Source of the DNA: Candidatus Forterrea multitransposorum CG_2015-17_Forterrea_25_41
GTDB taxonomy: Archaea > Iainarchaeota > Iainarchaeia > Iainarchaeales > CSSED10-239
Assembly (NCBI GenBank): GCA_009392915.1
Contig: CP045477.1
Coordinates: 448,001-512,000 of the forward strand
Length of the DNA stretch: 64,000 bases
Direction: 5' to 3'
Shown here in pieces: positions 8,885 to 40,362 of the stretch (its first letter is position 1; each line of letters begins with the position of its first letter). A program made the position numbers and the translations under genes. The notes beneath the pieces were generated by a model, which was not told the DNA's origin, ran no database searches, and worked only from the letters and a program-made list of their open reading frames with translations.

Positions 8885-8936
8885 CCTTATATACAAAAAA
8901 GAAGCTTAATTTAAGCTTATTTTAATAATGAGGTGG
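8885..8936 (+). promoter_or_regulatory. ftsZ promoter region: TATA-like box (TTATATAC, 8887-8894), inverted repeat AAGCTTAA-T-TTAAGCTT (8902-8918), SD GAGGTGG (8930-8936)
   Basis: Read directly from the sequence upstream of ftsZ. Confidence 0.45.
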
Positions 8937-8941
8937 ATTGG

Positions 8942-10054
8942 ATGAGATCAATTGTATCAAATGCAGTAGAGCACAAATCTGCAGCTGCTGAGAACATAAA
9001 CGTTAAAGACAGCGAATTTGCAGCCCCAAAGATCATGGTTATGGGAATTGGTGGTGCAGGAAATAATTCTGTAAATAGAATCTGTGCAATGGGTGTTGCA
9101 GGTGCACAACTTGTAGCTATTAACACAGATAGACAACACTTAGGTATCATTTCAGATGATATAACAAAATTATTAATTGGAAAATCAGTAACTAATGGTT
9201 TAGGTGCTGGTGCATACCCTGAAATAGGTGCAAAAGCAGCAGAAGTTTCAAAAGCAGCATTAGAAGAAATCTTAGATGGTGTTGACATGCTTTTCATTAC
9301 TGCCGGAATGGGTGGTGGAACAGGAACAGGTGCAGCTCCAGTAGTAGCTCAAATAGCAAAACAACAAGGTGCAATTGTAATGTGTATAGTAACTTATCCT
9401 TTCGCACTTGAAAGAGCACGTTTAATTAAAGCAGAAGAAGGAATTGACCTTTTAAAAGATATTTGTGACACAGTTGTTGTTATTGATAACAATAGACTTG
9501 TTGAATTAGTTCCAAACCTTCCAATGCAAGATGCTTTCAGAGTAGCTGATGAAGTAATTGCAAGAACAGTAAGAGGAATTACAGAAACAATTACTCAACC
9601 TTCATTAATCAACCTTGATTACGCAGACATAAGAACAGTAATGGGTGGTAAAGGATTATCAGTTATCGCTGTTGGTGAATCACAATCTGTTAACAAAGTT
9701 GAAGAAGTTGTTGAAGACACATTAAAGAATGCTCTTTTAGATGTTGATATAACTGGTGCAACAGGTTGTTTAATCCATATTACAGGTGGAACTGAATTAA
9801 CTTTAGGTGAAGCTAACGCTGTTGGTGAAATGTTAACTGACCAAACAGATTCAAATGCAGCTGTTATCTGGGGTGCAAGAATTGATCCTACTTTTGAGAA
9901 TAAAATAGAAGTAATTGCTATTTTCACAGGTGTAAAATCACCATTCATCAAAGGAAGTAAAATGTTTAGAGGAAAAGATTCACCACAAAGCTACAACGGA
10001 AGTGGCAAAGGTGGAAGATCTTACGATGACAACTATGGATTAGATGTTTTATAA
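8942..10054 (+). CDS. ftsZ: cell division GTPase FtsZ (the track start 8933 is a GTG inside the SD; the ATG at 8942 is preferred)
   Basis: Tubulin/FtsZ signature GGGTGTG (MGGGTGTGAAPVVAQ) and an N-terminal GIGGAGNN motif; GC content clearly above the local average. Confidence 0.9.
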   Translation: MRSIVSNAVEHKSAAAENINVKDSEFAAPKIMVMGIGGAGNNSVNRICAMGVAGAQLVAINTDRQHLGIISDDITKLLIGKSVTNGLGAGAYPEIGAKAAEVSKAALEEILDGVDMLFITAGMGGGTGTGAAPVVAQIAKQQGAIVMCIVTYPFALERARLIKAEEGIDLLKDICDTVVVIDNNRLVELVPNLPMQDAFRVADEVIARTVRGITETITQPSLINLDYADIRTVMGGKGLSVIAVGESQSVNKVEEVVEDTLKNALLDVDITGATGCLIHITGGTELTLGEANAVGEMLTDQTDSNAAVIWGARIDPTFENKIEVIAIFTGVKSPFIKGSKMFRGKDSPQSYNGSGKGGRSYDDNYGLDVL

Positions 10055-30190: not shown

Positions 30191-30919
30191 TTACTTCTTC
30201 TTTTTATCATCTTTTTTAGCAGCAGGAGCAGCTTTACCAGCTGGAGCTTTTGAATCTTTACCAGCAACAACTTTACCTTTTGCAGCTTTAAGTTCTTGAG
30301 CTTTTGCTTCTTCTGCTTTCTTTTCTTCTTCTGCCATAGCAGCAAGTTTTCTTCTCTTCTTTGTAGTTCCAACAGATTTTAAGTTGTCTTTATTTTCTTC
30401 AATTACAACTTTCATTCTACAAGGAAGTTTAGAATCAAGTCTTTCAAAGACTTTTTTTACAAATTCAACATTTGCTTCATCAACTAAAACACTAAATAAT
30501 TTTTGATTAGATTTAACTCTTGCAGCAACACCAACAACTTTTCCAAAAGGGCATTGACTCATACCTTGTTGAATTCTGTCGGCTTTAGCACCTTGAGCTT
30601 GTTTATTTTCTCTTAAGAAAAATTGAGGATATACTCTTAATTTCATATAGAAATTTTGAGCAGTTAATTTTTTATTTAAGTTTCTTACAACAGTTGTTCT
30701 TACAGATTCTAAAGCTGAATCTCTAATTTGTATTTTTTCAGAAGTTACATAATGAACTACATGAGAATATTGTTTTTCTCCAAAACCCATATGGTATTGT
30801 CTAACTTTAATACCTGGAGTTCCGCCTACATAGTTCTTTCTATGCACTCTTTTTGCAACTCTTGTATATGCTCTTTTATTTACTTTTGGATTATAACAAT
30901 GTCCTGGTCTAACACCCAT
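30191..30919 (-). CDS. rpl10e: 50S ribosomal protein L10e (uL16) with a roughly 65-aa Lys/Ala-rich C-terminal extension
   Basis: MGVRPGHCYNPKVNKRAYTRVAKRVHRKNYVGGTPGIKVRQYHMG is the L10e hallmark; TATA TTTATAAA and SD GGTGA upstream; tail ...AKAQELKAAKGKVVAGKDSKAPAGKAAPAAKKDDKKKK. Confidence 0.85.
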   Translation of the reverse strand: MGVRPGHCYNPKVNKRAYTRVAKRVHRKNYVGGTPGIKVRQYHMGFGEKQYSHVVHYVTSEKIQIRDSALESVRTTVVRNLNKKLTAQNFYMKLRVYPQFFLRENKQAQGAKADRIQQGMSQCPFGKVVGVAARVKSNQKLFSVLVDEANVEFVKKVFERLDSKLPCRMKVVIEENKDNLKSVGTTKKRRKLAAMAEEEKKAEEAKAQELKAAKGKVVAGKDSKAPAGKAAPAAKKDDKKKK

Positions 30920-31290: not shown

Positions 31291-33081
31291 TCATCCATAA
31301 GTAGTTGCTTTAATACTTTTAACTACACCACTTACAAGAACCCAGCCACCCCATTGACCAGTATTTCTGGATGAATTGGTTACAGATAAAGTCCAACCAG
31401 GTTCACTGTCACCAACTTCCCAATATTTACATTTTTTAGAAGAACCAAAAGCTTCTACTTTAATATTATAATTACCAGCAGGAACTTTCCAAGATCCATC
31501 TTTATCAGTTGCAAGTTGTGAACCACCATATTTAAGATATAAACCATCATTTCCATAATCATTAGTTATTGAACAAACATATGAAGCACTTGTTGAAGAA
31601 TAATTAAAAGTGAGACCTGCTTGAGAAGTATCATTTTCAGAAGCTAAACTAACTACTCCTTCTAAAACTAAATTACCTTGTGTACTTAAACCCTGGTAAA
31701 AGAAACCTGCAGAAGACCAAAATTCATTTAATTTAACACCACCACCTGAGAACGCAGGCTGAGCTACAACTGTACCACCTGATTGCGACCAACCAGACAA
31801 ACTAGTAATACTAGTTTGATTTAATAAAACTACAGCAGGAGCTGATAGAACAAGATTAATACTTGAACTTGTTGCTGTTCTTGAAGCACCATCTGTTACA
31901 GTTACTCTAATATATTTTGTACCAGTAGTTGAAAATGAATAAGTTGGATTTGAAACTGAAGTTCCAAAAACAATCCAAGTACTTTGATTTGTACTATATT
32001 CCCAGGAATAATTAGATACTCCAGAAACTGCATTACTTACAGAAGAATTAAAACTTATTGTTTGACCAGTATCATAATTTGTACCAGTTGTTGGAGAAGT
32101 AACACTTACAGCTAAAGGATCACTAATTAAAATATTACTAACAGTATCAGAATAAACTTGATTAATAGGAGAAGGTCTTGAAGCATCTGTAACTAAAACT
32201 CTAAACTCATAAGTCCCACCTGTTGCAAAACCATTTGTTGTAGTATAACTATTAGAACCAAAGTTAGTCCAACCAGTACTGTTTCTATTATACTGCCATT
32301 GATAAGATTTAGTACCAATTGCATTTGAAACACCTACATCAAATATTATTCCTTCACTAAGATTATAAACATCACTTGCATCAGGAGTATAAATAGTTGC
32401 TGTTAATGGAAGAACAACTGTAAAATCTTCACTTGAAGTTGAAATATCTCCAGTTCCAGAATCTGTTACTTTATAATAAATAGTATAGCTTCCTGTTGAA
32501 GATAAAGTTTGAGATAAAGAAGCACAATTAGTACCAACTGCAGTATTAGTATCATTTGAGTTTAATATCCATTCACAAGAAACTGTTGAAACATTATTAT
32601 CATAATTTCCAGTAAATGAAATTGTTTCATTATTATTCCAAGTAGTTCTTGACATTGTAATACTTGAAGATAACAAATCTAAAATATTTATTCCAATTGT
32701 TTGAGAATCACTTGAAGAATCAAAATCATCTAAAGTATCTAATTTAATTGAATAATCATTAAATACTGAAAAAGAATAACTTGTATTACAATCAGTACTA
32801 AAAGATGTAAATGATGGTAAGTCAGCTCTCTTATGACTCCAATTACAAGTTACATTTCCAACATTATTACTATATGAAGAATTAAAATTAATTGTTTTTG
32901 TAACATTATAATTTGATTCTTCTGTTGGATTTAATATTGTTGATGAAAAATCATCAAAAATTTCAACAAATAAATCATCACTAAAAGTTCCTTCATCATC
33001 ATTTGCAATTACTAAAATTTCATAAATTCCAGGAGTTGTAAAAGTATAAGAAATATCACACAAGGTATCTGAAGGATTCAT
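31291..33081 (-). CDS. S/T-rich, beta-rich repeat (PKD/Ig-like) surface adhesin-like domain; lacks its own signal peptide. The frame continues upstream through 46 sense codons to a single TAA that terminates the pilin-like ORF
   Basis: ORF track plus manual frame check (see findings); composition SSYSN, TGT, repeated roughly 90-aa modules. Confidence 0.5.
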   Translation of the reverse strand: MNPSDTLCDISYTFTTPGIYEILVIANDDEGTFSDDLFVEIFDDFSSTILNPTEESNYNVTKTINFNSSYSNNVGNVTCNWSHKRADLPSFTSFSTDCNTSYSFSVFNDYSIKLDTLDDFDSSSDSQTIGINILDLLSSSITMSRTTWNNNETISFTGNYDNNVSTVSCEWILNSNDTNTAVGTNCASLSQTLSSTGSYTIYYKVTDSGTGDISTSSEDFTVVLPLTATIYTPDASDVYNLSEGIIFDVGVSNAIGTKSYQWQYNRNSTGWTNFGSNSYTTTNGFATGGTYEFRVLVTDASRPSPINQVYSDTVSNILISDPLAVSVTSPTTGTNYDTGQTISFNSSVSNAVSGVSNYSWEYSTNQSTWIVFGTSVSNPTYSFSTTGTKYIRVTVTDGASRTATSSSINLVLSAPAVVLLNQTSITSLSGWSQSGGTVVAQPAFSGGGVKLNEFWSSAGFFYQGLSTQGNLVLEGVVSLASENDTSQAGLTFNYSSTSASYVCSITNDYGNDGLYLKYGGSQLATDKDGSWKVPAGNYNIKVEAFGSSKKCKYWEVGDSEPGWTLSVTNSSRNTGQWGGWVLVSGVVKSIKATTYG

Positions 33082-33219
33082 TCTTACTTGTGATCCACCT
33101 GCAATTGTATGATACCATTCACAAGAAACACTTCCTCTTTGATAAAGTGTATCAGTTTCAAAAGAAACAGAAGTGTTTACTCTGAATGAATCAAAATTTG
33201 TAACATTTGAAAAGAAAAT

Positions 33220-33744
33220 TTAAGAAGATGGAAGTTCTACAGCACATTTTCTTAAATCAATTGTTTTTTTAGGACAAGTAGAGTTTGATAAAGTAAAAAC
33301 CTTTAAATCTAAAGGATCAATTATTTCTCCAGAATCAACATTAATATCAGAATTTACAATTGTAAAATCAGTTGTTGATTTTAATTTTTTAATTTCTCCA
33401 GATAAAATAGGATTATCAAAATTACCATACATTTTTAGAACATTTGAAGAATTTTGAGAAGTTCCTTGAATATTTAAAGAAAGATTATAAAAATCAATAG
33501 GGGTTGGGTTTCTTAATAAAACTTCAATATTTCCAGTAGTTGAATCAAGATTACAAGATTCTACAACTAAATTATACTTAATACAATCCATTCTAGAAAC
33601 TTCTTGTAATTGATCTTGTGAAACATCTAATTTTTCTCTAACAGATGTTTTTGACCAAGATAAAAATCCTGCAACTAAAACAGCTGTTACCAAGATTAAT
33701 AAAACTACAGAAATTATTGCCGAAATTGATTTTTTTCTATTCAT
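33220..33744 (-). CDS. type IV pilin-like protein (class III signal peptide); probably the N-terminal part of a pilin-adhesin fusion
   Basis: MNRKKS|ISAIISVVLLILVTAVLVAGFLSW: basic residues, a small residue at -1, a hydrophobic helix (archaeal prepilin signature); in frame with the downstream adhesin ORF. Confidence 0.55.
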   Translation of the reverse strand: MNRKKSISAIISVVLLILVTAVLVAGFLSWSKTSVREKLDVSQDQLQEVSRMDCIKYNLVVESCNLDSTTGNIEVLLRNPTPIDFYNLSLNIQGTSQNSSNVLKMYGNFDNPILSGEIKKLKSTTDFTIVNSDINVDSGEIIDPLDLKVFTLSNSTCPKKTIDLRKCAVELPSS

Positions 33745-33830: not shown

Positions 33831-34172
33831 TTAAAAAGAAATAATATCATTTATTTTTATAAAAGAAATATCTGTTTCAATTGGAAGTTCAATTATATAT
33901 TTAGCTTTCTTTTTTGGAGAATAAAAAGTAAAAGGTCTTAATCTTTTTTTAATATCAATAACTTTTTTATTTGAATCTAGAAAAAGAACATTTATTGAAT
34001 AGAAAACAAAAAGCATATGAATTGAAGAGCCTACAATAGATTCATATTCTCTTTTAAAAATAAGACCAAAATCAAATTTCTTTCTTGGAAAAAACATAAG
34101 TCCAAGTCCTTGTTTTAAAGGAGAAATTATTTTCTTTTTTTTAATTATTATTTTATTATTAACTTTTATCAA
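33831..34172 (-). CDS. DUF192 (COG1430) family small protein
   Basis: GLGLMFF...FGLIF...IHMLFV.YSINVLFLD...YIIELP matches the DUF192 consensus. Confidence 0.5.
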   Translation of the reverse strand: MIKVNNKIIIKKKKIISPLKQGLGLMFFPRKKFDFGLIFKREYESIVGSSIHMLFVFYSINVLFLDSNKKVIDIKKRLRPFTFYSPKKKAKYIIELPIETDISFIKINDIISF

Positions 34173-34178
34173 AAATAA

Positions 34179-35330
34179 TCACACTTTTTTTTTTAAACTT
34201 ACCCTATATAAAATAACAAAATCAATATCAGATTTTCTAATCTCAAAATCAAAAAATACAGCATCTGGTACAAAAATAGCATACTCTGCACAAGAAAGAC
34301 CACATTCACTTTGATCAAAAGGTAAAAAATATAGATTATTACTATATGTTTTATCTAGAATATATTTAGAACTAATAGATTTTAAAGCAATGACTTCAGA
34401 AATATTTACTTGTTCTAGCTGATTACGATTCATATAGGTAATAGTGTCAATTAAAACACTCTCAGCATCTGGTTTTGGAACAGCAATTTGAAAGATTAAA
34501 ATTGTAAATATAAAAAATATGAAAATATATTTGATAAAATTAAAACTACTTTCTTCTTTTATTGCAAACATTATAAAAGAAATAAAGATAGAAAGAACAA
34601 TTGCCATATAAAGAAGGAAATTATCAAAAAATATTCTTGTTATTAAATCTTGATCTGCATACCATAAAAAATTATTACCTAGTATAATATTTATGAATAA
34701 AATTACAACTAAAAAGATTACAAATAAAACAATGGATAAATAATATAAATTTAAAAAATATTTTTTCTTTTGTGTTTCTTCTTTAAAAATAGAAATATCT
34801 TTTGAAATATTTAAAAGAACTCTATCAAGAGGTATAGAACTTTCTTTAAAAGTCTTTAACAATATTAAAGTGTGAGTGATTATTGGACTTTTAATAGTCT
34901 CATTAATACCTGATAAAGCATTTTCAAAATCATCTCCCCAAGAAACTCTATTTGCTATTCTTTTTATTTCTGTATCAATTGAACCATAAACATTTGATGT
35001 TGTGATATTGTTTAATGATATTGATAAATTATTTGTAGATTTATACTCTCTCGATAAATCTTGTAAAAAGAATGTAAAAGAAGTTTCAATTGCTTTCTTT
35101 TTAAAGTGTTTTAAAACATATTCTAAAACAAAACCTAAAAAACTTACGAAAAAACCAAAAAAGAAAACTGCATAGTATAATTCAGTATGAAGAAAATATT
35201 TATTTGATAAATGAACAATTAAAAGACCAGATAAAATACTTGCAAGAATTAATATTTGGTATTCATAATTATAAATTAATAGTTTTAATTTAATATTCAT
35301 TTTATCTAAAAATTTATTTTTTTCTATCAT
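34179..35330 (-). CDS. FlaJ/TadC-like polytopic membrane protein (T2SS-F-like half)
   Basis: TM helices flanking a cytoplasmic helical region; operon context. Confidence 0.4.
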   Translation of the reverse strand: MIEKNKFLDKMNIKLKLLIYNYEYQILILASILSGLLIVHLSNKYFLHTELYYAVFFFGFFVSFLGFVLEYVLKHFKKKAIETSFTFFLQDLSREYKSTNNLSISLNNITTSNVYGSIDTEIKRIANRVSWGDDFENALSGINETIKSPIITHTLILLKTFKESSIPLDRVLLNISKDISIFKEETQKKKYFLNLYYLSIVLFVIFLVVILFINIILGNNFLWYADQDLITRIFFDNFLLYMAIVLSIFISFIMFAIKEESSFNFIKYIFIFFIFTILIFQIAVPKPDAESVLIDTITYMNRNQLEQVNISEVIALKSISSKYILDKTYSNNLYFLPFDQSECGLSCAEYAIFVPDAVFFDFEIRKSDIDFVILYRVSLKKKV

Positions 35331-35346
35331 TTAAAAATCAATCTCT

Positions 35347-36189
35347 TCATTTATATAAAATCCCAATTAATACAAATTCAATTACTGCAAATATTATTGA
35401 AAAAATCAACAATGATTCTTTTAATAAAAAATAATCTGTAAAAGTTATAAAAAATATTATTAAAATAACAATAAAAAAGAAAAATAAAAATATTGACATT
35501 AAAAATAAAATATTAATTCTACTTTTCTTTTGTTCACTTAACTCTCTTTTAGATTGTTCTAAATTAGTTAAGAAATCAAGAATAACTTGATTTAAGTCTT
35601 CTTTTTGATCAATAACTTCAATTAATTTTCTAAAGAAGTTTTTTTCAACTTCAGAATATGTTTCAGAAATTATTGATTTAAAAGTATCTTTAAGATTATG
35701 ATTTCTTTTATTTAAAGCAATTATTTTCTTTGCTTCTCTGCTTAATATATCATTATTTTCTAAGTTTTCAAAAACATTCAATACATCTTTAATAGTTAGA
35801 TTTTCATCTCTTAAAACAGATAAATGTTTTATAGATCTTTGAAATTCACTACCAATTTCTTTTTTTATATTATTTAAAATAAAAAAAGGATATTTAAATA
35901 AAAGTAAAAAAATCATAAAAGCAAAAGTAAAAGAAATAAAAATAGTTATAAAAAAACTAAAAAGATTAAACAATATTCCAAGTCTAATCATTAAATAAAT
36001 AAAAGCAAACTCTATAACTATTAAAAAAAATATAGAAATAAAAGAAATATTTGAAATATAACTAATAGAATCTTCATTGATACCAGTATATTCTAAAACT
36101 CTATCAAAATTTTTAAAAGTACCTTTAAATTGCATAACAATATCTTTTAAGAAAAATAAAGATATACTTGTTAAGAATTTACTAAACAT
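35347..36189 (-). CDS. FlaJ/TadB-like polytopic membrane protein (T2SS-F-like half)
   Basis: N-terminal TMs, cytoplasmic helical domain (EIGSEFQRSIKHLSVLRDENLTIKDVLNVF), C-terminal TMs; starts 7 nt after the upstream stop. Confidence 0.4.
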   Translation of the reverse strand: MFSKFLTSISLFFLKDIVMQFKGTFKNFDRVLEYTGINEDSISYISNISFISIFFLIVIEFAFIYLMIRLGILFNLFSFFITIFISFTFAFMIFLLLFKYPFFILNNIKKEIGSEFQRSIKHLSVLRDENLTIKDVLNVFENLENNDILSREAKKIIALNKRNHNLKDTFKSIISETYSEVEKNFFRKLIEVIDQKEDLNQVILDFLTNLEQSKRELSEQKKSRINILFLMSIFLFFFFIVILIIFFITFTDYFLLKESLLIFSIIFAVIEFVLIGILYK

Positions 36190-36196
36190 ATTTTTT

Positions 36197-39100
36197 TCAC
36201 TTTATATCGAGTCTTTTAAACAACTCGTCCTTTTCATAATTATATTGAGAGATAATACTATTAAAATCTTTGTAATTGTATACTTTTGAATCCTTCATCC
36301 ATCTCATAAGTTTCTTTTTCTTTAAAAAATCAACAACATTTATTGAAGAAGATAAAAGATTAATATTGTATTTATTTTCGGATATTTCTAAATCTACAAC
36401 TACACTTTCATTTTTATTAATTATTTCTTTAATATTTACAATTTGATAAGTTTCTTTAAAACCTTGTTTAATTCTTTTAATTTCTATTAGAATAGATTTT
36501 TGATTAACCATTTTTAATTGTTCAATAAATTTATCAGCAACATTTGGTTTTATTGAAAAGATATTTAAGTTATACCAAGAAACATCAAAAATATCTTCTC
36601 CAAACTCATCAATTGCAATAATATCTGGTTTCTGAGAAATTGTTTGTTCAATAATTAAACGTTTACTTAAATCTGCATTATTTGTAAAAATTCTATTAAT
36701 CCATTCTTTTTGAGGAAGTTTAAATCTATCGTATGCCTGAACAGTTATAATTTTCTGATCAGGATAAAATAAAAGTATAGAATTATAAATTACAAAAGAA
36801 TCATCAACATCATGTAAAATAACTTTATAGTTTTCTGAAATTGCAGACCAGATATATGAAAATACATCTACAGAACCAATAGATGTATTAACTAAAGCAA
36901 CAGGTGTTAATGGTTCATCAAGATATTTTTTAATTACAAAAGAAGAACCTTTACTACTAGTATCTCCTAAAGAATAAAGACCTTCAACTTTATAACCATT
37001 AGGTAAATATCCATCAATCACAGGATGTTCTGGAGTTATATAGATACCCATATTTTTAGTTAAAATAGTTACAAAGTTATTTAACTCAATAATATCTTTA
37101 AAACTAATATTTGTTTTTAAAACACCATACTCTACATGGTAAACTATAAGATTTGATTTTTCACCAGAACAACTAACTTCAATTATTTTTTTATCAAGTA
37201 AAAGATTAGTTAAAATACCTAACCCAAAAAATTCTCTTTGAATAAATTTAAGATAAAGTTTTTGTTGTAATTTACCTAAACTATAAGATAATTTTTCAAC
37301 AGAAATATCAAATATTTTTTGAATATATTTATCAAGACTATGTTTATCTCCATTAAAAGAATAATAGTTTTTATCGATTGTATTAAAAAATACTTTTTTT
37401 AATTGAATATATTCTTTTTCTTGTTCACTATTAAGTTCTGGTTGTACTAAATTATAGAAAAGACCTTTAGTATTATCATAATGTATTGTAACATATGTAA
37501 AATCATCTATAGAATATTTATCAAAAATATTTTTTATATTTTCTTCAAATGAAGCAATAGGATCTTGATACACTAAAGAAGAAAATAGAGAATTGTCAGA
37601 AGATAATTTTTCTTGATATATTTCTTTATTTATTTTAACAGGATTTTTTCCAGCATCTTTTGGAAGGATATAATCCATACCTTTTTCTCTTAAGTCTTTA
37701 AATTTTTCTGCAATTAAATCATTTTTAACTTTCGGAGTTAATTTTACTTCTTTGATAATTTTAATTTCTTGTTCTTTTGGTAATGATTCTTTTTTAATTG
37801 TTTTAGATATTTTTTCATCATCATTATCTTCATCAGAATAATTCTCTTTTGAAGTAACTTTTTCTTCTCTTATAGAAGGAGAAATATATTTTTTATTTTT
37901 GTTTGAAATTTTAGATTTATCTTTTTTATTTTTAGGAGAAGAAATTTCTCTCATACCTTTATATATTCTTTCATCATCTTCTTTAGATAAATCAACATCA
38001 GAAAATACTTTTTTAACATCTTCTTCATCTTTATCTATTTTCTCATTTAAAACATTAACATCAAATTTTTCTTTTTCTTTTTCTTCTAAAGTTTTTGATT
38101 TTTTTAATTTAGAAATATTATTTTCAATTTCAGAATTTAATTTTACTTGATTATTATCAATTACAAAATTTGGTGTTTTTTCAGAAGATTCATTTGTTTT
38201 AATTTCAGAAGATAAAGAAGAATCTTCATTTAAAACTTTTAAATCATTTTTTGAATCTTTATCATATACAGAAAACTTATCTTCAACAGTGTTAGATAAA
38301 TCTTTAACATCATCTTCAATTGCAAAAATATCTGGAACTTCAATTTCTTCAAATAAACCATTAGCCTCACCTAAAGAAGAATTATTTAAATGAGAACTAG
38401 AATTTTTAGAATCTATTTCTAAATTACCTGTGTTTTTAGGAAAATCATTTGAATTTGCTAAAGTTTCTTTATTTTGAGAATCTTTATTTTTATTTACAGA
38501 TAAATGATCTATTTTTGAATATAAATTTTTAACATCATACTTTGGAAAATCAATTTTACTTTTTTTAGGTTTATCATCTAAAAAAGAAAATGATTCTAAA
38601 TAAACTTCTTGATCAAGTTTACTTGCTTTTTTATTTAATTGATCTAATAAATCATCTACATTTTCATTTTTTGATTTTACTTCTGAAAAAATATCATTTG
38701 ATTCTTTACTTTCAGAATATTCTTTTGGTTTAGATACATTTTCTAAAATATCTTTCAAAAGAGACATGGTTTTTTTATTATTATTTGATTCATCAAAATT
38801 TATTTCTTTTTTAATTGAATTATCAATATGATCTATTTTAGGCTCACTTATTAAAAATGAATTTGAAGGTTTTATTTTTTTTTCAGAAGATGAATCCGAA
38901 AGTAGTAGTTCATGAGATGAATCAGGGAGTAATAATTCATTATTAATTTTTGATGAAATTAATTTATTAGATGTTGATTTTTTATCAACTTTATCTAAAG
39001 GAACTTCTTTTTTAAAAATATTAGAATTATCAACCTTATCTAAAGGAACTTCTTTTTTAGAAATATTAGAATTATCAACTTTATCTAAAGGAACTTCTTT

Positions 39101-39547
39101 TTTAGAAATATTAGAATTATCAACTTTATCTAAAGGAACTTCTTTTTTAGAAATATTAGAATTATCAACTTTATCTAAAGGAACTTCTTTTTTAGAAATA
39201 TCTAAATTATCAACTTTATCTAAAAGAATCTTTTTTTTTCTAAAAGGATTAAAATCTTTATATTTTTCTTCAATATCAGAAGTGTCAACTTTTAAGTTTA
39301 CTTTCTTAACATCATTATAATTTTTATTTAAAGAAAAATCATCTTTTTTAGTTTCTGGTAAAACTACATCAAATTTTTGTAATTTTTTAGAATTACTATT
39401 ATTTTTTAAAGAACTATCAATTTTATCTTCTTTTAAAGAACTATCAAATTTATTATTTTTTACAGAATCTGAAGCTTTAGATATAGATTTAGATAGAGGA
39501 ATTCTTTTAATAACCTTAAAACCAGAAAAATTATCCTCTCCACCCAT
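36197..39547 (-). CDS. giant FlaI/PilB-like pseudo-ATPase: roughly 650-aa disordered K/D/S/E-rich N-terminal region with 5x DKVDNSNISKKEVPL repeats, plus a C-terminal FlaI N-domain and a degenerate ATPase domain with no P-loop
   Basis: C-terminal half aligns with the active ATPase at 22273-24036 (LLLDKKIIEVSCSGEKSNLIVYHVEYGVLKTNISF vs ILKDPYLEEIVIIGEGKSLYVYHKYYGWLESNLSY), but Walker A GNTGSGKTT is replaced by HDVDDSFVI and Walker B RPDRVVIGEIRSREE by KPDIIAIDEFGEDI. Confidence 0.6.
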   Translation of the reverse strand: MGGEDNFSGFKVIKRIPLSKSISKASDSVKNNKFDSSLKEDKIDSSLKNNSNSKKLQKFDVVLPETKKDDFSLNKNYNDVKKVNLKVDTSDIEEKYKDFNPFRKKKILLDKVDNLDISKKEVPLDKVDNSNISKKEVPLDKVDNSNISKKEVPLDKVDNSNISKKEVPLDKVDNSNIFKKEVPLDKVDKKSTSNKLISSKINNELLLPDSSHELLLSDSSSEKKIKPSNSFLISEPKIDHIDNSIKKEINFDESNNNKKTMSLLKDILENVSKPKEYSESKESNDIFSEVKSKNENVDDLLDQLNKKASKLDQEVYLESFSFLDDKPKKSKIDFPKYDVKNLYSKIDHLSVNKNKDSQNKETLANSNDFPKNTGNLEIDSKNSSSHLNNSSLGEANGLFEEIEVPDIFAIEDDVKDLSNTVEDKFSVYDKDSKNDLKVLNEDSSLSSEIKTNESSEKTPNFVIDNNQVKLNSEIENNISKLKKSKTLEEKEKEKFDVNVLNEKIDKDEEDVKKVFSDVDLSKEDDERIYKGMREISSPKNKKDKSKISNKNKKYISPSIREEKVTSKENYSDEDNDDEKISKTIKKESLPKEQEIKIIKEVKLTPKVKNDLIAEKFKDLREKGMDYILPKDAGKNPVKINKEIYQEKLSSDNSLFSSLVYQDPIASFEENIKNIFDKYSIDDFTYVTIHYDNTKGLFYNLVQPELNSEQEKEYIQLKKVFFNTIDKNYYSFNGDKHSLDKYIQKIFDISVEKLSYSLGKLQQKLYLKFIQREFFGLGILTNLLLDKKIIEVSCSGEKSNLIVYHVEYGVLKTNISFKDIIELNNFVTILTKNMGIYITPEHPVIDGYLPNGYKVEGLYSLGDTSSKGSSFVIKKYLDEPLTPVALVNTSIGSVDVFSYIWSAISENYKVILHDVDDSFVIYNSILLFYPDQKIITVQAYDRFKLPQKEWINRIFTNNADLSKRLIIEQTISQKPDIIAIDEFGEDIFDVSWYNLNIFSIKPNVADKFIEQLKMVNQKSILIEIKRIKQGFKETYQIVNIKEIINKNESVVVDLEISENKYNINLLSSSINVVDFLKKKKLMRWMKDSKVYNYKDFNSIISQYNYEKDELFKRLDIK
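38991..39230 (-). repeat. five near-perfect 45-nt tandem repeats (unit TTATCTAAAGGAACTTCTTTTTTAGAAATATTAGAATTATCAAC), in-frame within the pseudo-ATPase gene
   Basis: Seen directly; encodes (DKVDNSNISKKEVPL)x5. Confidence 0.9.
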
Positions 39548-39630: not shown

Positions 39631-40362
39631 TCAAATAACAAAAGAAATAATTTTTGGAATAATTTCAAAAACATATAAAAGAATTAGAAAGATATAACTT
39701 ACTAGGATTAATATAATAAATGGAATTAAAGGAGAAAACCACACCTTAGAAATATTATGATTTTTAGCAATAACTTTAATTTTTTTAATTTCATTTTCTG
39801 GTTCAATATTTGGCATAAAAACAATTTTTGAAATTAATTTATTATTTTCTACATACAATTTTTCTAAAGGAGTATAAAAATTATTTACTTTTTTTAAAGA
39901 TAAAGGAACCCCTAAAAACATTAGATATAATGATTTAAAAAAATTATATTTAGGAAAATTTCTTGAAAATAAATTATATAAAAATAAGAAAACAGGTATA
40001 AGTAAAGTTAAAACTAAAGCAAAAAAGAAAATAAACATTGGAAAATATATATCAAAAATATTTGTAAATGATATTGCAAAAATAGTATAAAGATCCCCTT
40101 CTCCTATATATGTAAAATAACTAATCTTTCCTAAAACATAAAAAATTAATAAAAATATAAAACTTACAGCAAGTTGTATTAAATAACCTTTCCATAAAAT
40201 AAAATCTGTTTTAAAAACAAAAATACCTAAATAAAGAATACTAAAGATGGCTAAGAAAAATAAAGACATTATATTTATTTCTCTATACTTAATATCTTGA
40301 TAAGTTACATACAATAAAATAATTATAGAAAAAATAATTATTGGTAAATAAATATAATCCAT
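39631..40362 (-). CDS. A24-family prepilin/preflagellin peptidase (FlaK/PibD-like)
   Basis: Polytopic; first catalytic Asp in YQDIKYREINI, second in IGEGDLYT (a GxGDxK-like motif). Confidence 0.55.
   Translation of the reverse strand: MDYIYLPIIIFSIIILLYVTYQDIKYREINIMSLFFLAIFSILYLGIFVFKTDFILWKGYLIQLAVSFIFLLIFYVLGKISYFTYIGEGDLYTIFAISFTNIFDIYFPMFIFFFALVLTLLIPVFLFLYNLFSRNFPKYNFFKSLYLMFLGVPLSLKKVNNFYTPLEKLYVENNKLISKIVFMPNIEPENEIKKIKVIAKNHNISKVWFSPLIPFIILILVSYIFLILLYVFEIIPKIISFVI

Follow-up and report, generated by a model that had tools for sequence, protein, structure and literature searches.

The locus considered in the present study lies in a window of 64,000 nucleotides (the whole stretch of DNA that was analysed; G+C content 24%) from Candidatus Forterrea multitransposorum, contig CP045477.1, positions 448,001 to 512,000. 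The host is an Iainarchaeota (DPANN) archaeon, and the related loci come from metagenome-assembled genomes (MAGs) of Candidatus Iainarchaeum. The element in question is a single frame of 817 codons on the minus strand (33744..31291), in which a pilin-like module is followed by a large ectodomain and which holds only one internal stop, a TAA. The initial annotation had read the pilin-like open reading frame (ORF) and the ORF downstream of it as one frame with this lone break, and our frame check confirmed the reading: the junction runs ELPSS, the TAA position, then IFFSNVTNFDSFR. It was also borne out that the 46 codons following the TAA are free of stops and of in-frame ATG, GTG and TTG. The S/T/N-rich composition continues past the stop as described, and the downstream ORF, which the ORF lister opens at ATG 33081 to give 596 amino acids (aa), lacks a signal peptide, with no hydrophobic stretch at its N-terminus. 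On balance, we consider it probable that this gene is one of several young, recurrent and selected truncations, which give a short pilin and leave an unexpressed relic. The features of the locus and of the neighbouring pilus genes are listed in Table 1.

Table 1. Positions of the interrupted pilin-adhesin gene, its parts and its neighbours in the window
Feature	Coordinates	Strand	Remarks
Pilin ORF	33744..33223	minus	174 codons, MNRKKSISAIISVVLLILV...KCAVELPSS; then TAA
Class III signal peptide	33744..33727	minus	MNRKKS, then ISAIIS...
In-frame TAA in pilin/PKD linker	33222..33220	minus	derived from CAA (Gln) by C>T transition
Open stretch after the TAA	33219..31294	minus	642 stop-free codons
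Stretch of 46 codons after the TAA	33219..33082	minus	no stop or start; N-terminal half of PKD-like domain 1
Five PKD/Ig-like beta-sandwich repeats	33219..31837	minus	residues 176-636 of the fused protein
First ATG of the downstream ORF	33081..33079	minus	conserved internal Met (VRMNP) of PKD domain 1; no genuine start
C-terminal beta-sandwich module	31836..31294	minus	about 180 aa; strands 640-811 in AlphaFold model
TGA, true end of the ancestral gene	31293..31291	minus	
Ribosomal protein uL16/L10e	30191-30919	minus	downstream neighbour
DUF192 gene of the pilus operon	33831..34172	minus	Pfam PF02643, E=2.9e-9; syntenic in all related loci
Two T2SSF (TadC/FlaJ-like) membrane platform genes	34179-35330, 35347-36189	minus	Pfam PF00482
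Secretion/assembly ATPase	36197..39547	minus	1116 aa; FlaI-like residues 668-955; NCBIfam NF058587, E=1.9e-30
Archaeal prepilin peptidase, A24	39631..40362	minus	Arc_PepC_II E=5.8e-10; Peptidase_A24 E=2.2e-4

A six-frame scan found three minus-strand pairs of open stretches (at least 80 codons) that are parted by a single stop, and the other two are ordinary gene neighbours (T2SSF/DUF192 and 28370/27908). Hence, the same-frame adjacency is by itself unremarkable; what places a split gene beyond chance is that protein content spans the junction, namely a PKD match, a repeat alignment and continuous orthologues. On the post-stop frame, Pfam matches PKD over residues 12-86, which places the first ATG (post-stop residue 47) within the domain. 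In addition, the first 46 post-stop codons align to the N-terminal half of the next repeat (E=0.001), and in the AlphaFold model of the orthologue P0001 they make up beta-strands one to four of PKD domain 1 (185-188, 192-195, 207-214 and 219-221). The array as a whole is modelled there as beta domains at 185-633, with a predicted local distance difference test (pLDDT) score of mostly 80-93. Between the pilin head and PKD domain 1, the only low-confidence stretch is the linker, where pLDDT is below 50 at residues 169-173. The domains belong to the PKD type, as repeat 5 matches PKD_4 with 37.9 bits (Pfam cutoff 27); on repeat 1, PF00801 reaches 22.3 bits and is slightly under its threshold of 23.5. 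A Foldseek search with the whole model matched only generic strings of Ig-like domains.

The comparison of orthologues, which had been proposed as a check, gave a continuous ORF with the same pilin N-terminus and PKD array in six related lineages, in proteins of 811-934 aa. These are P0001 (813 aa, 88% identical), L012 (811 aa), P0003 (814 aa) and P0004 (815 aa) and, with a different C-terminal module, P0005 (933 aa) and P0008 (934 aa). A seventh lineage (P0006/L020, 765 aa) reads through the junction, and a frameshift near the C-terminus ends the protein early. The two ORFs are thus one pilin-anchored adhesin gene, as had been suggested, and the orthologues do not consistently encode two genes of which the second has a signal peptide of its own.

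The product of the window gene, to judge from its sequence and setting, would be a type IV pilin with a class III signal peptide. Its short charged leader (MNRKKS, with ISAIISVVLLILV... following) precedes a hydrophobic alpha-1N helix of about 20 residues (ISAIISVVLLILVTAVLVAGFL), and the leader residue at -1 is G, A or S across the relatives. The head is a beta-sandwich with two Cys pairs (C54/C64 and C157/C167), and the model of P0001 places helices at 2-31 and 43-56 and the beta head at 60-153. Furthermore, the dedicated machinery (A24 peptidase, ATPase and TadC/FlaJ platform) is encoded alongside. The Pfam pilin families, including Pilin_N (PF07790), gave no match to the module even at E<=10, and the sole NCBIfam pilin match was a faint one to UpsA (E=0.052; 13.7 bits, where the cutoff is 130).

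When the 174-aa module served as query, an exhaustive HMMER search collected 46 clusters at 50% identity, in every one of which the module is N-terminal, and a profile search enlarged the family by one partial protein only (P0057). The module stands alone, in proteins of 163-179 aa, in 17 of the 43 near-full-length clusters (at least 150 aa; about 40%), and in the remaining 26 it is fused to extensions, in proteins of 259-2867 aa. The natural stand-alone pilins end 3-7 residues past the last Cys; the three truncated products described below end 6-9 residues past it, and the window product 7. At the syntenic locus of a 42%-identical relative (L023/L024, P0014), only a 174-aa pilin stands ahead of uL16, with no ectodomain ORF. 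A stand-alone pilin of about 175 aa is a natural architecture of this family. No split genes were found among the distant short pilins that were inspected (P0014 in L023/L024, P0015 in L028 and P0019 in L033); the long pilin-like genes beside P0015 and P0019 are separate, and each of them encodes a leader. In L028 and in L033, one seemingly in-frame pair each was rejected, as many stops lie between the partners.

The position of the stop is occupied by Gln, Lys, Thr, Glu or Asp in the continuous orthologues. The local sequence is TCT TCT TAA ATT in the window, L001-L004 and L011, and TCT TCT CAA ATT in the relatives L008-L010, L012, L013 and L016; since the nearest relatives carry CAA, the window stop is a derived C>T transition. 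Among the causes listed in the initial annotation, a recent nonsense mutation (CAA>TAA) is the best supported. A phase-variation switch found no support, as a repeat tract is absent at the site: there is no hypermutable simple repeat at the switch sites of the window (TCT TCT TAA ATT) or L005 (ACT TAA ATT), and the only repeat at the L018 shift site is (CCTG)x2. A sequencing or assembly error is excluded as the cause by the occurrence of the same TAA in at least five independent assemblies (JGI 3300007985, 3300008094, GCA_009993835.1, ERZ27293359 and Ga0210028). These come from different samples and pipelines, and the locus is 99.93-100% identical among them over 12.5 kb. In the sequence collection, 96 blocks are indexed for a product identical to the 174-aa pilin. 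As had been noted, there is also no sign of a non-standard code, for TAA is the commonest terminator of the 48 ORFs in the window (TAA 28, TGA 10, TAG 10), it ends uL16 and NDK at positions matching those of their relatives, and no other gene of the window is split by an in-frame TAA. An error at 33220-33222, or a TAA that is read as sense, has nothing in its favour besides the in-frame stop itself, and we give this explanation next to no credence.

It would also be conceivable that the locus makes two separate functional proteins, the second of which would start at ATG 33081 or arise when translation reinitiates past the TAA. A GGTG stands 14 nt upstream of this ATG and gene callers annotate the 596-aa protein, but the Met of VRMNP is invariant across all continuous orthologues, the GGTG codes for a conserved Gly-Gly, and its spacing is longer than the 7-10 nt of Shine-Dalgarno-like GGTG at other genes of the window. 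A product started here would miss four strands of PKD domain 1. A signal peptide would be missing as well, in contrast to comparable ectodomain proteins of related loci, which have a class III leader; that these long proteins have a leader of their own underlines that the downstream ORF could not be exported alone. Hence, we regard two functional proteins as most improbable. The 596-aa 'hypothetical protein' of public records (P0002; e.g. NCP79195.1) is a gene-caller artefact that starts inside a PKD domain, and the entry is best regarded as the 3' portion of the interrupted gene of 817 codons.

The window is not the only place where this gene is interrupted, and the sequences indicate that the same hinge was also cut, independently, in two other lineages. 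Counted in codons after the CxV motif, the TAA of the window, L001-L004 and L011 is at linker position 6. In L005/L006/L007, which are 55% identical to the window protein, a TAA lies at position 8, two codons 3' of the window stop (...LPDFET, stop, ILSPS...), and the close relative L020 has TTA there. In L018/L026/L027, a frameshift leads to an immediate TGA (GCC TGA AAT ATT) at position 5, one codon 5' of the window stop, and the PKD frame continues at +1; this frameshift was confirmed by an independent Logan assembly. Lesions elsewhere were seen in L019 (a 7-nt deletion in PKD domain 2, about aa 324) and in L020 (a 2-nt loss, A6>A4, about aa 766). The census of the pilin-PKD gene thus comprises about 11 lineages, with six intact, three cut in the linker and two cut elsewhere. 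Under uniform placement, at least three of five lesions would fall within four codons with p = 5e-4 to 9e-4. Because three independent lineages are cut within four codons of the linker, the position of the stop is not random and looks selected.

This clustering bears directly on plain neutral pseudogenisation, in which the gene would simply decay and the three linker lesions would coincide by chance. The frameshifts of L019 and L020 outside the linker speak for such decay, and so does the fast evolution of the PKD and C-terminal parts (omega 0.4-1.7). Against it stand the p values just given, which become smaller still when the real nonsense target is considered, as the 10-codon linker holds only about 1% of the possible single-step nonsense paths. 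Moreover, no lineage has multiple lesions, and the interrupted branches show purifying selection. Neutral decay is in our opinion very unlikely.

The interruptions are young events at the tips of the tree, because every interrupted lineage is essentially clonal and the nearest relatives are uninterrupted. In the clonal population of the window, the nine single nucleotide polymorphisms seen in L003 are all outside the gene, and the nearest uninterrupted relatives lie at a synonymous divergence (dS) of about 0.1-0.26 (about 0.7 for L018). The pilin module has a ratio of nonsynonymous to synonymous divergence (dN/dS) of about 0.2; the corresponding values are 0.4-0.5 in the PKD array and 0.4-1.7 in the C-terminal module. 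Branch-specific counts of synonymous (S) and nonsynonymous (N) changes were S=10 and N=5 for the window PKD region, S=33 and N=16 for L018, S=9 and N=15 for L005, and S=12 and N=15 for L020, the sister of L005; the neutral expectation of N:S is 3.4. Relaxed selection downstream of the lesions was not seen in the pairwise dN/dS or in the branch counts, which have little power for very young lesions. The marks of a pseudogene, that is, relaxed selection and multiple lesions, were also not found, and each interrupted lineage has a single lesion. The absence of relaxation is compatible with very young lesions or a very young pseudogene, and also with a frame that is still used.

Several observations weigh against the selected truncation that we favour. 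All three interrupted lineages retain a downstream frame of 638-766 codons with no second lesion, and at 24% GC about 5% of random substitutions would make a stop; the three events must therefore be very recent, or the frame is still in use. The operon of the window has no second pilin gene, and related loci often encode both short and long modular pilins, so a mixture of short and long forms may be the functional design. Plain decay also happens in this gene, as L019 and L020 show, the lesion of each being known from a single short contig.

Some of these points would be met by leaky termination. Here, ribosomes would infrequently read through the linker stop in the window and in L005; in L018 they would get past it with a +1 shift at GCC UGA A, a site which we take to resemble the antizyme +1 shift site UCC UGA U (a look-up in PMC5009743 found no matching text). 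The major product of the one gene would then be the short pilin and its minor product the long pilin-adhesin, and the two would co-assemble through their identical pilin module. In keeping with this, the interruptions fall precisely at points that would leave both products well formed, no downstream frame is broken, N:S on the interrupted branches is well below neutral, the window operon has a single pilin gene, and in relatives separate genes provide the short and the long form, whose pilin modules are nearly identical. However, the stop is not conserved, with sense codons in the nearest relatives and each interruption confined to a clonal tip, and TAA-A is the commonest terminator context in the window and presumably efficient. 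Three different lesions would demand three different bypass mechanisms. No conserved stop or context, stimulatory sequence or RNA structure of a recoding site was found: RNAalifold on nine lineages gave no shared structure, and beyond their position the three lesions have no common motif. The window junction itself folds somewhat more stably than its shuffles (z=-2.6), which was considered as an RNA element promoting readthrough; relatives do not share it, and it was treated as incidental. According to a review of 2021, recoding in archaea has been documented only for selenocysteine, pyrrolysine, the -1 frameshift of fucA1 and some viruses, and documented readthrough is limited to the first two (PMC8211752). 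Overall, leaky termination appears to us rather unlikely.

The course of events that we favour, selected truncation, would begin from an ancestral modular type IV pilin in which a flexible linker joins leader and pilin module to five PKD-like domains and a variable end. A C>T change turned CAA of the linker into TAA, so that translation stops shortly past the last pilin Cys and the product is equivalent to the stand-alone pilins of related archaea. The downstream 1.9 kb would be a young adhesin relic that has not decayed, is not exported alone and is at most translated in traces. Selection would favour, at least transiently, the clean shedding of the whole ectodomain with retention of a functional pilin. 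Candidate selective agents are the cost of a 640-aa appendage per subunit, escape from viruses or partners that recognise the ectodomain, and a change of host. We infer that the short product assembles into pili and that the downstream part is silent; the recurrent selection for shedding the ectodomain is probably transient.

The C-terminal module, for which no Pfam or NCBIfam family matched, is presumed to be the ligand-binding end. It is swapped in close relatives, as P0005 and P0008 carry PF12733 and PF21722 in its place, and its dS and dN far exceed those of the pilin part. L008 and L013 have near-identical pilin modules (dS 0.009), yet they carry different C-terminal modules, one a beta-sandwich of about 180 aa and the other a Cadherin-like and Gly-rich end of about 300 aa; L012 represents a third variant. 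The module exchange in L012, L013, L021 and L018 suggests, from the sequences compared, a cassette-like recombination of the binding end.

The machinery genes of Table 1 are directly upstream of the pilin gene on the same strand, and the arrangement is syntenic across the relatives. In the N-terminal extension of the pilus ATPase (about 39000-39250) there are five tandem 15-aa repeats (KKEVPLDKVDNSNIS), and the copy number varies in otherwise near-identical strains (1116 aa in the window, 1101 in L002 and 1079 in L008). The second T2SSF gene and the DUF192 gene (33831-35330) share a frame with a single TGA between them (34179-34181), which is probably a chance adjacency, and the start of DUF192 is disputed between gene callers (113 against 88 aa). 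The neighbour uL16/L10e has a Lys/Ala/Glu-rich C-terminal tail of about 65 residues (...AEEAKAQELKAAKGK...KKDDKKKK), which is conserved in the L018 relative. Elsewhere in the window, at 8917-10054, an ORF on the minus strand (8917-9297) overlaps one on the plus strand (8933-10054, GTG start).

Related loci present further arrangements of the pilin module. In L033 (1-5482, ENA ERZ23495671), a short pilin of 178 aa is flanked by two long modular pilins. Both of these have a C-terminal module that is uncharacterised, and one also has RCC1 repeats. The pilin module of the short pilin is identical over much of its length to that of the downstream long gene; the identity indicates a recent duplication or gene conversion, which would keep short and long subunits compatible. 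An extra stand-alone pilin of 175 aa lies upstream of the pilin-PKD gene in L018 (3977-4504), and a second pilin start follows this gene in L020 (4403-4624), where the contig then ends. A 799-aa Laminin_G_3 ORF adjoins the short pilin P0016 in L031. Another related archaeon has in its pilus locus (L028, 2283-3650) a fusion of a pilin-like class III N-terminus with an FGE-sulfatase-like domain, which by its sequence would be a further modular pilin architecture.

DPANN archaea are thought to be attached to or dependent on other cells, and surface filaments are obvious contact organs that have been little studied. An adhesin end that is swapped between close relatives, together with an ectodomain shed three times at one hinge, points to strong and fluctuating selection on the display of the pilus, for which a switch of host or partner, viral receptors and the cost of the ectodomain are possible agents. 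To our knowledge, no case has been documented in Archaea in which UAA is read through by insertion of a standard amino acid. If the stop were leaky after all, it would be the first standard-amino-acid readthrough of a stop codon described in this domain, and it would determine how many subunits bear the adhesin relative to plain ones, which would be a novel means of dosing an adhesin of the pilus. The locus is thus a sequence-defined place for asking whether archaea make two subunit forms by leaky termination.

Extension of a subunit by readthrough or frameshift is known from the Q-beta coat/A1 proteins and the phage tail proteins G/GT, and frameshifted capsid decoration proteins of phages follow a similar logic. 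As in these systems, the stop or frame change ends a self-sufficient module and an accessory domain follows; unlike them, the present family has no conserved stimulatory signal that could be found, and its stop is unconserved among relatives. Phase-variable adhesins, such as pilC of Neisseria, which is switched by a poly-G frameshift, offer another comparison. The likeness is that an adhesin function is lost repeatedly and independently by small lesions that are young and at the tips, with the filament subunit kept. The difference is that a hypermutable tract is absent, that two point mutations and a small indel are not rapidly reversible, and that the lesions cluster by their position in the linker and not in a repeat.

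Archaeal type IV pili and adhesion pilins, among them Aap and Ups of Sulfolobus, PilA of Haloferax and EpdE of Methanococcus, were catalogued by Makarova et al (2016; PMC4858521). The window locus shares their common ground, namely a class III leader, an A24 peptidase, a FlaI/VirB11-type ATPase and a TadC/FlaJ platform in one locus. Its pilin module forms a small family of its own, with only the faint similarity to UpsA. In the same catalogue, large class III proteins in archaeal pilus loci were predicted to be adhesins or minor pilins; DPANN, Diapherotrites, PKD and DUF192 go unmentioned in it (PMC4858521). As a class, modular type IV pilins have been described in bacteria by Raynaud et al (2021; PMC8179133), with PilB and PilC of S. 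sanguinis, CofB of enterotoxigenic Escherichia coli (ETEC) and TcpB of V. cholerae as examples. The recurrent cutting of the linker is a trait of the window family, and no description of it was found for the bacterial proteins. The window gene also differs from these in being archaeal and in having no Pfam or InterPro pilin signature, and it is apparently the only pilin gene of its operon in several lineages, in contrast to the bacterial modular pilins, which are minor pilins of low abundance beside a major one. The likeness lies in the ancestral architecture, in which a pilin module, a short linker and non-pilin modules are encoded within a pilus operon. This architecture is found in one polypeptide in the orthologues P0001, P0003, P0004, P0005 and P0008, and in the window the polypeptide is cut by the TAA. 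Judged by this shared organisation, the ancestral gene would be an archaeal counterpart of the bacterial modular type IV pilins.

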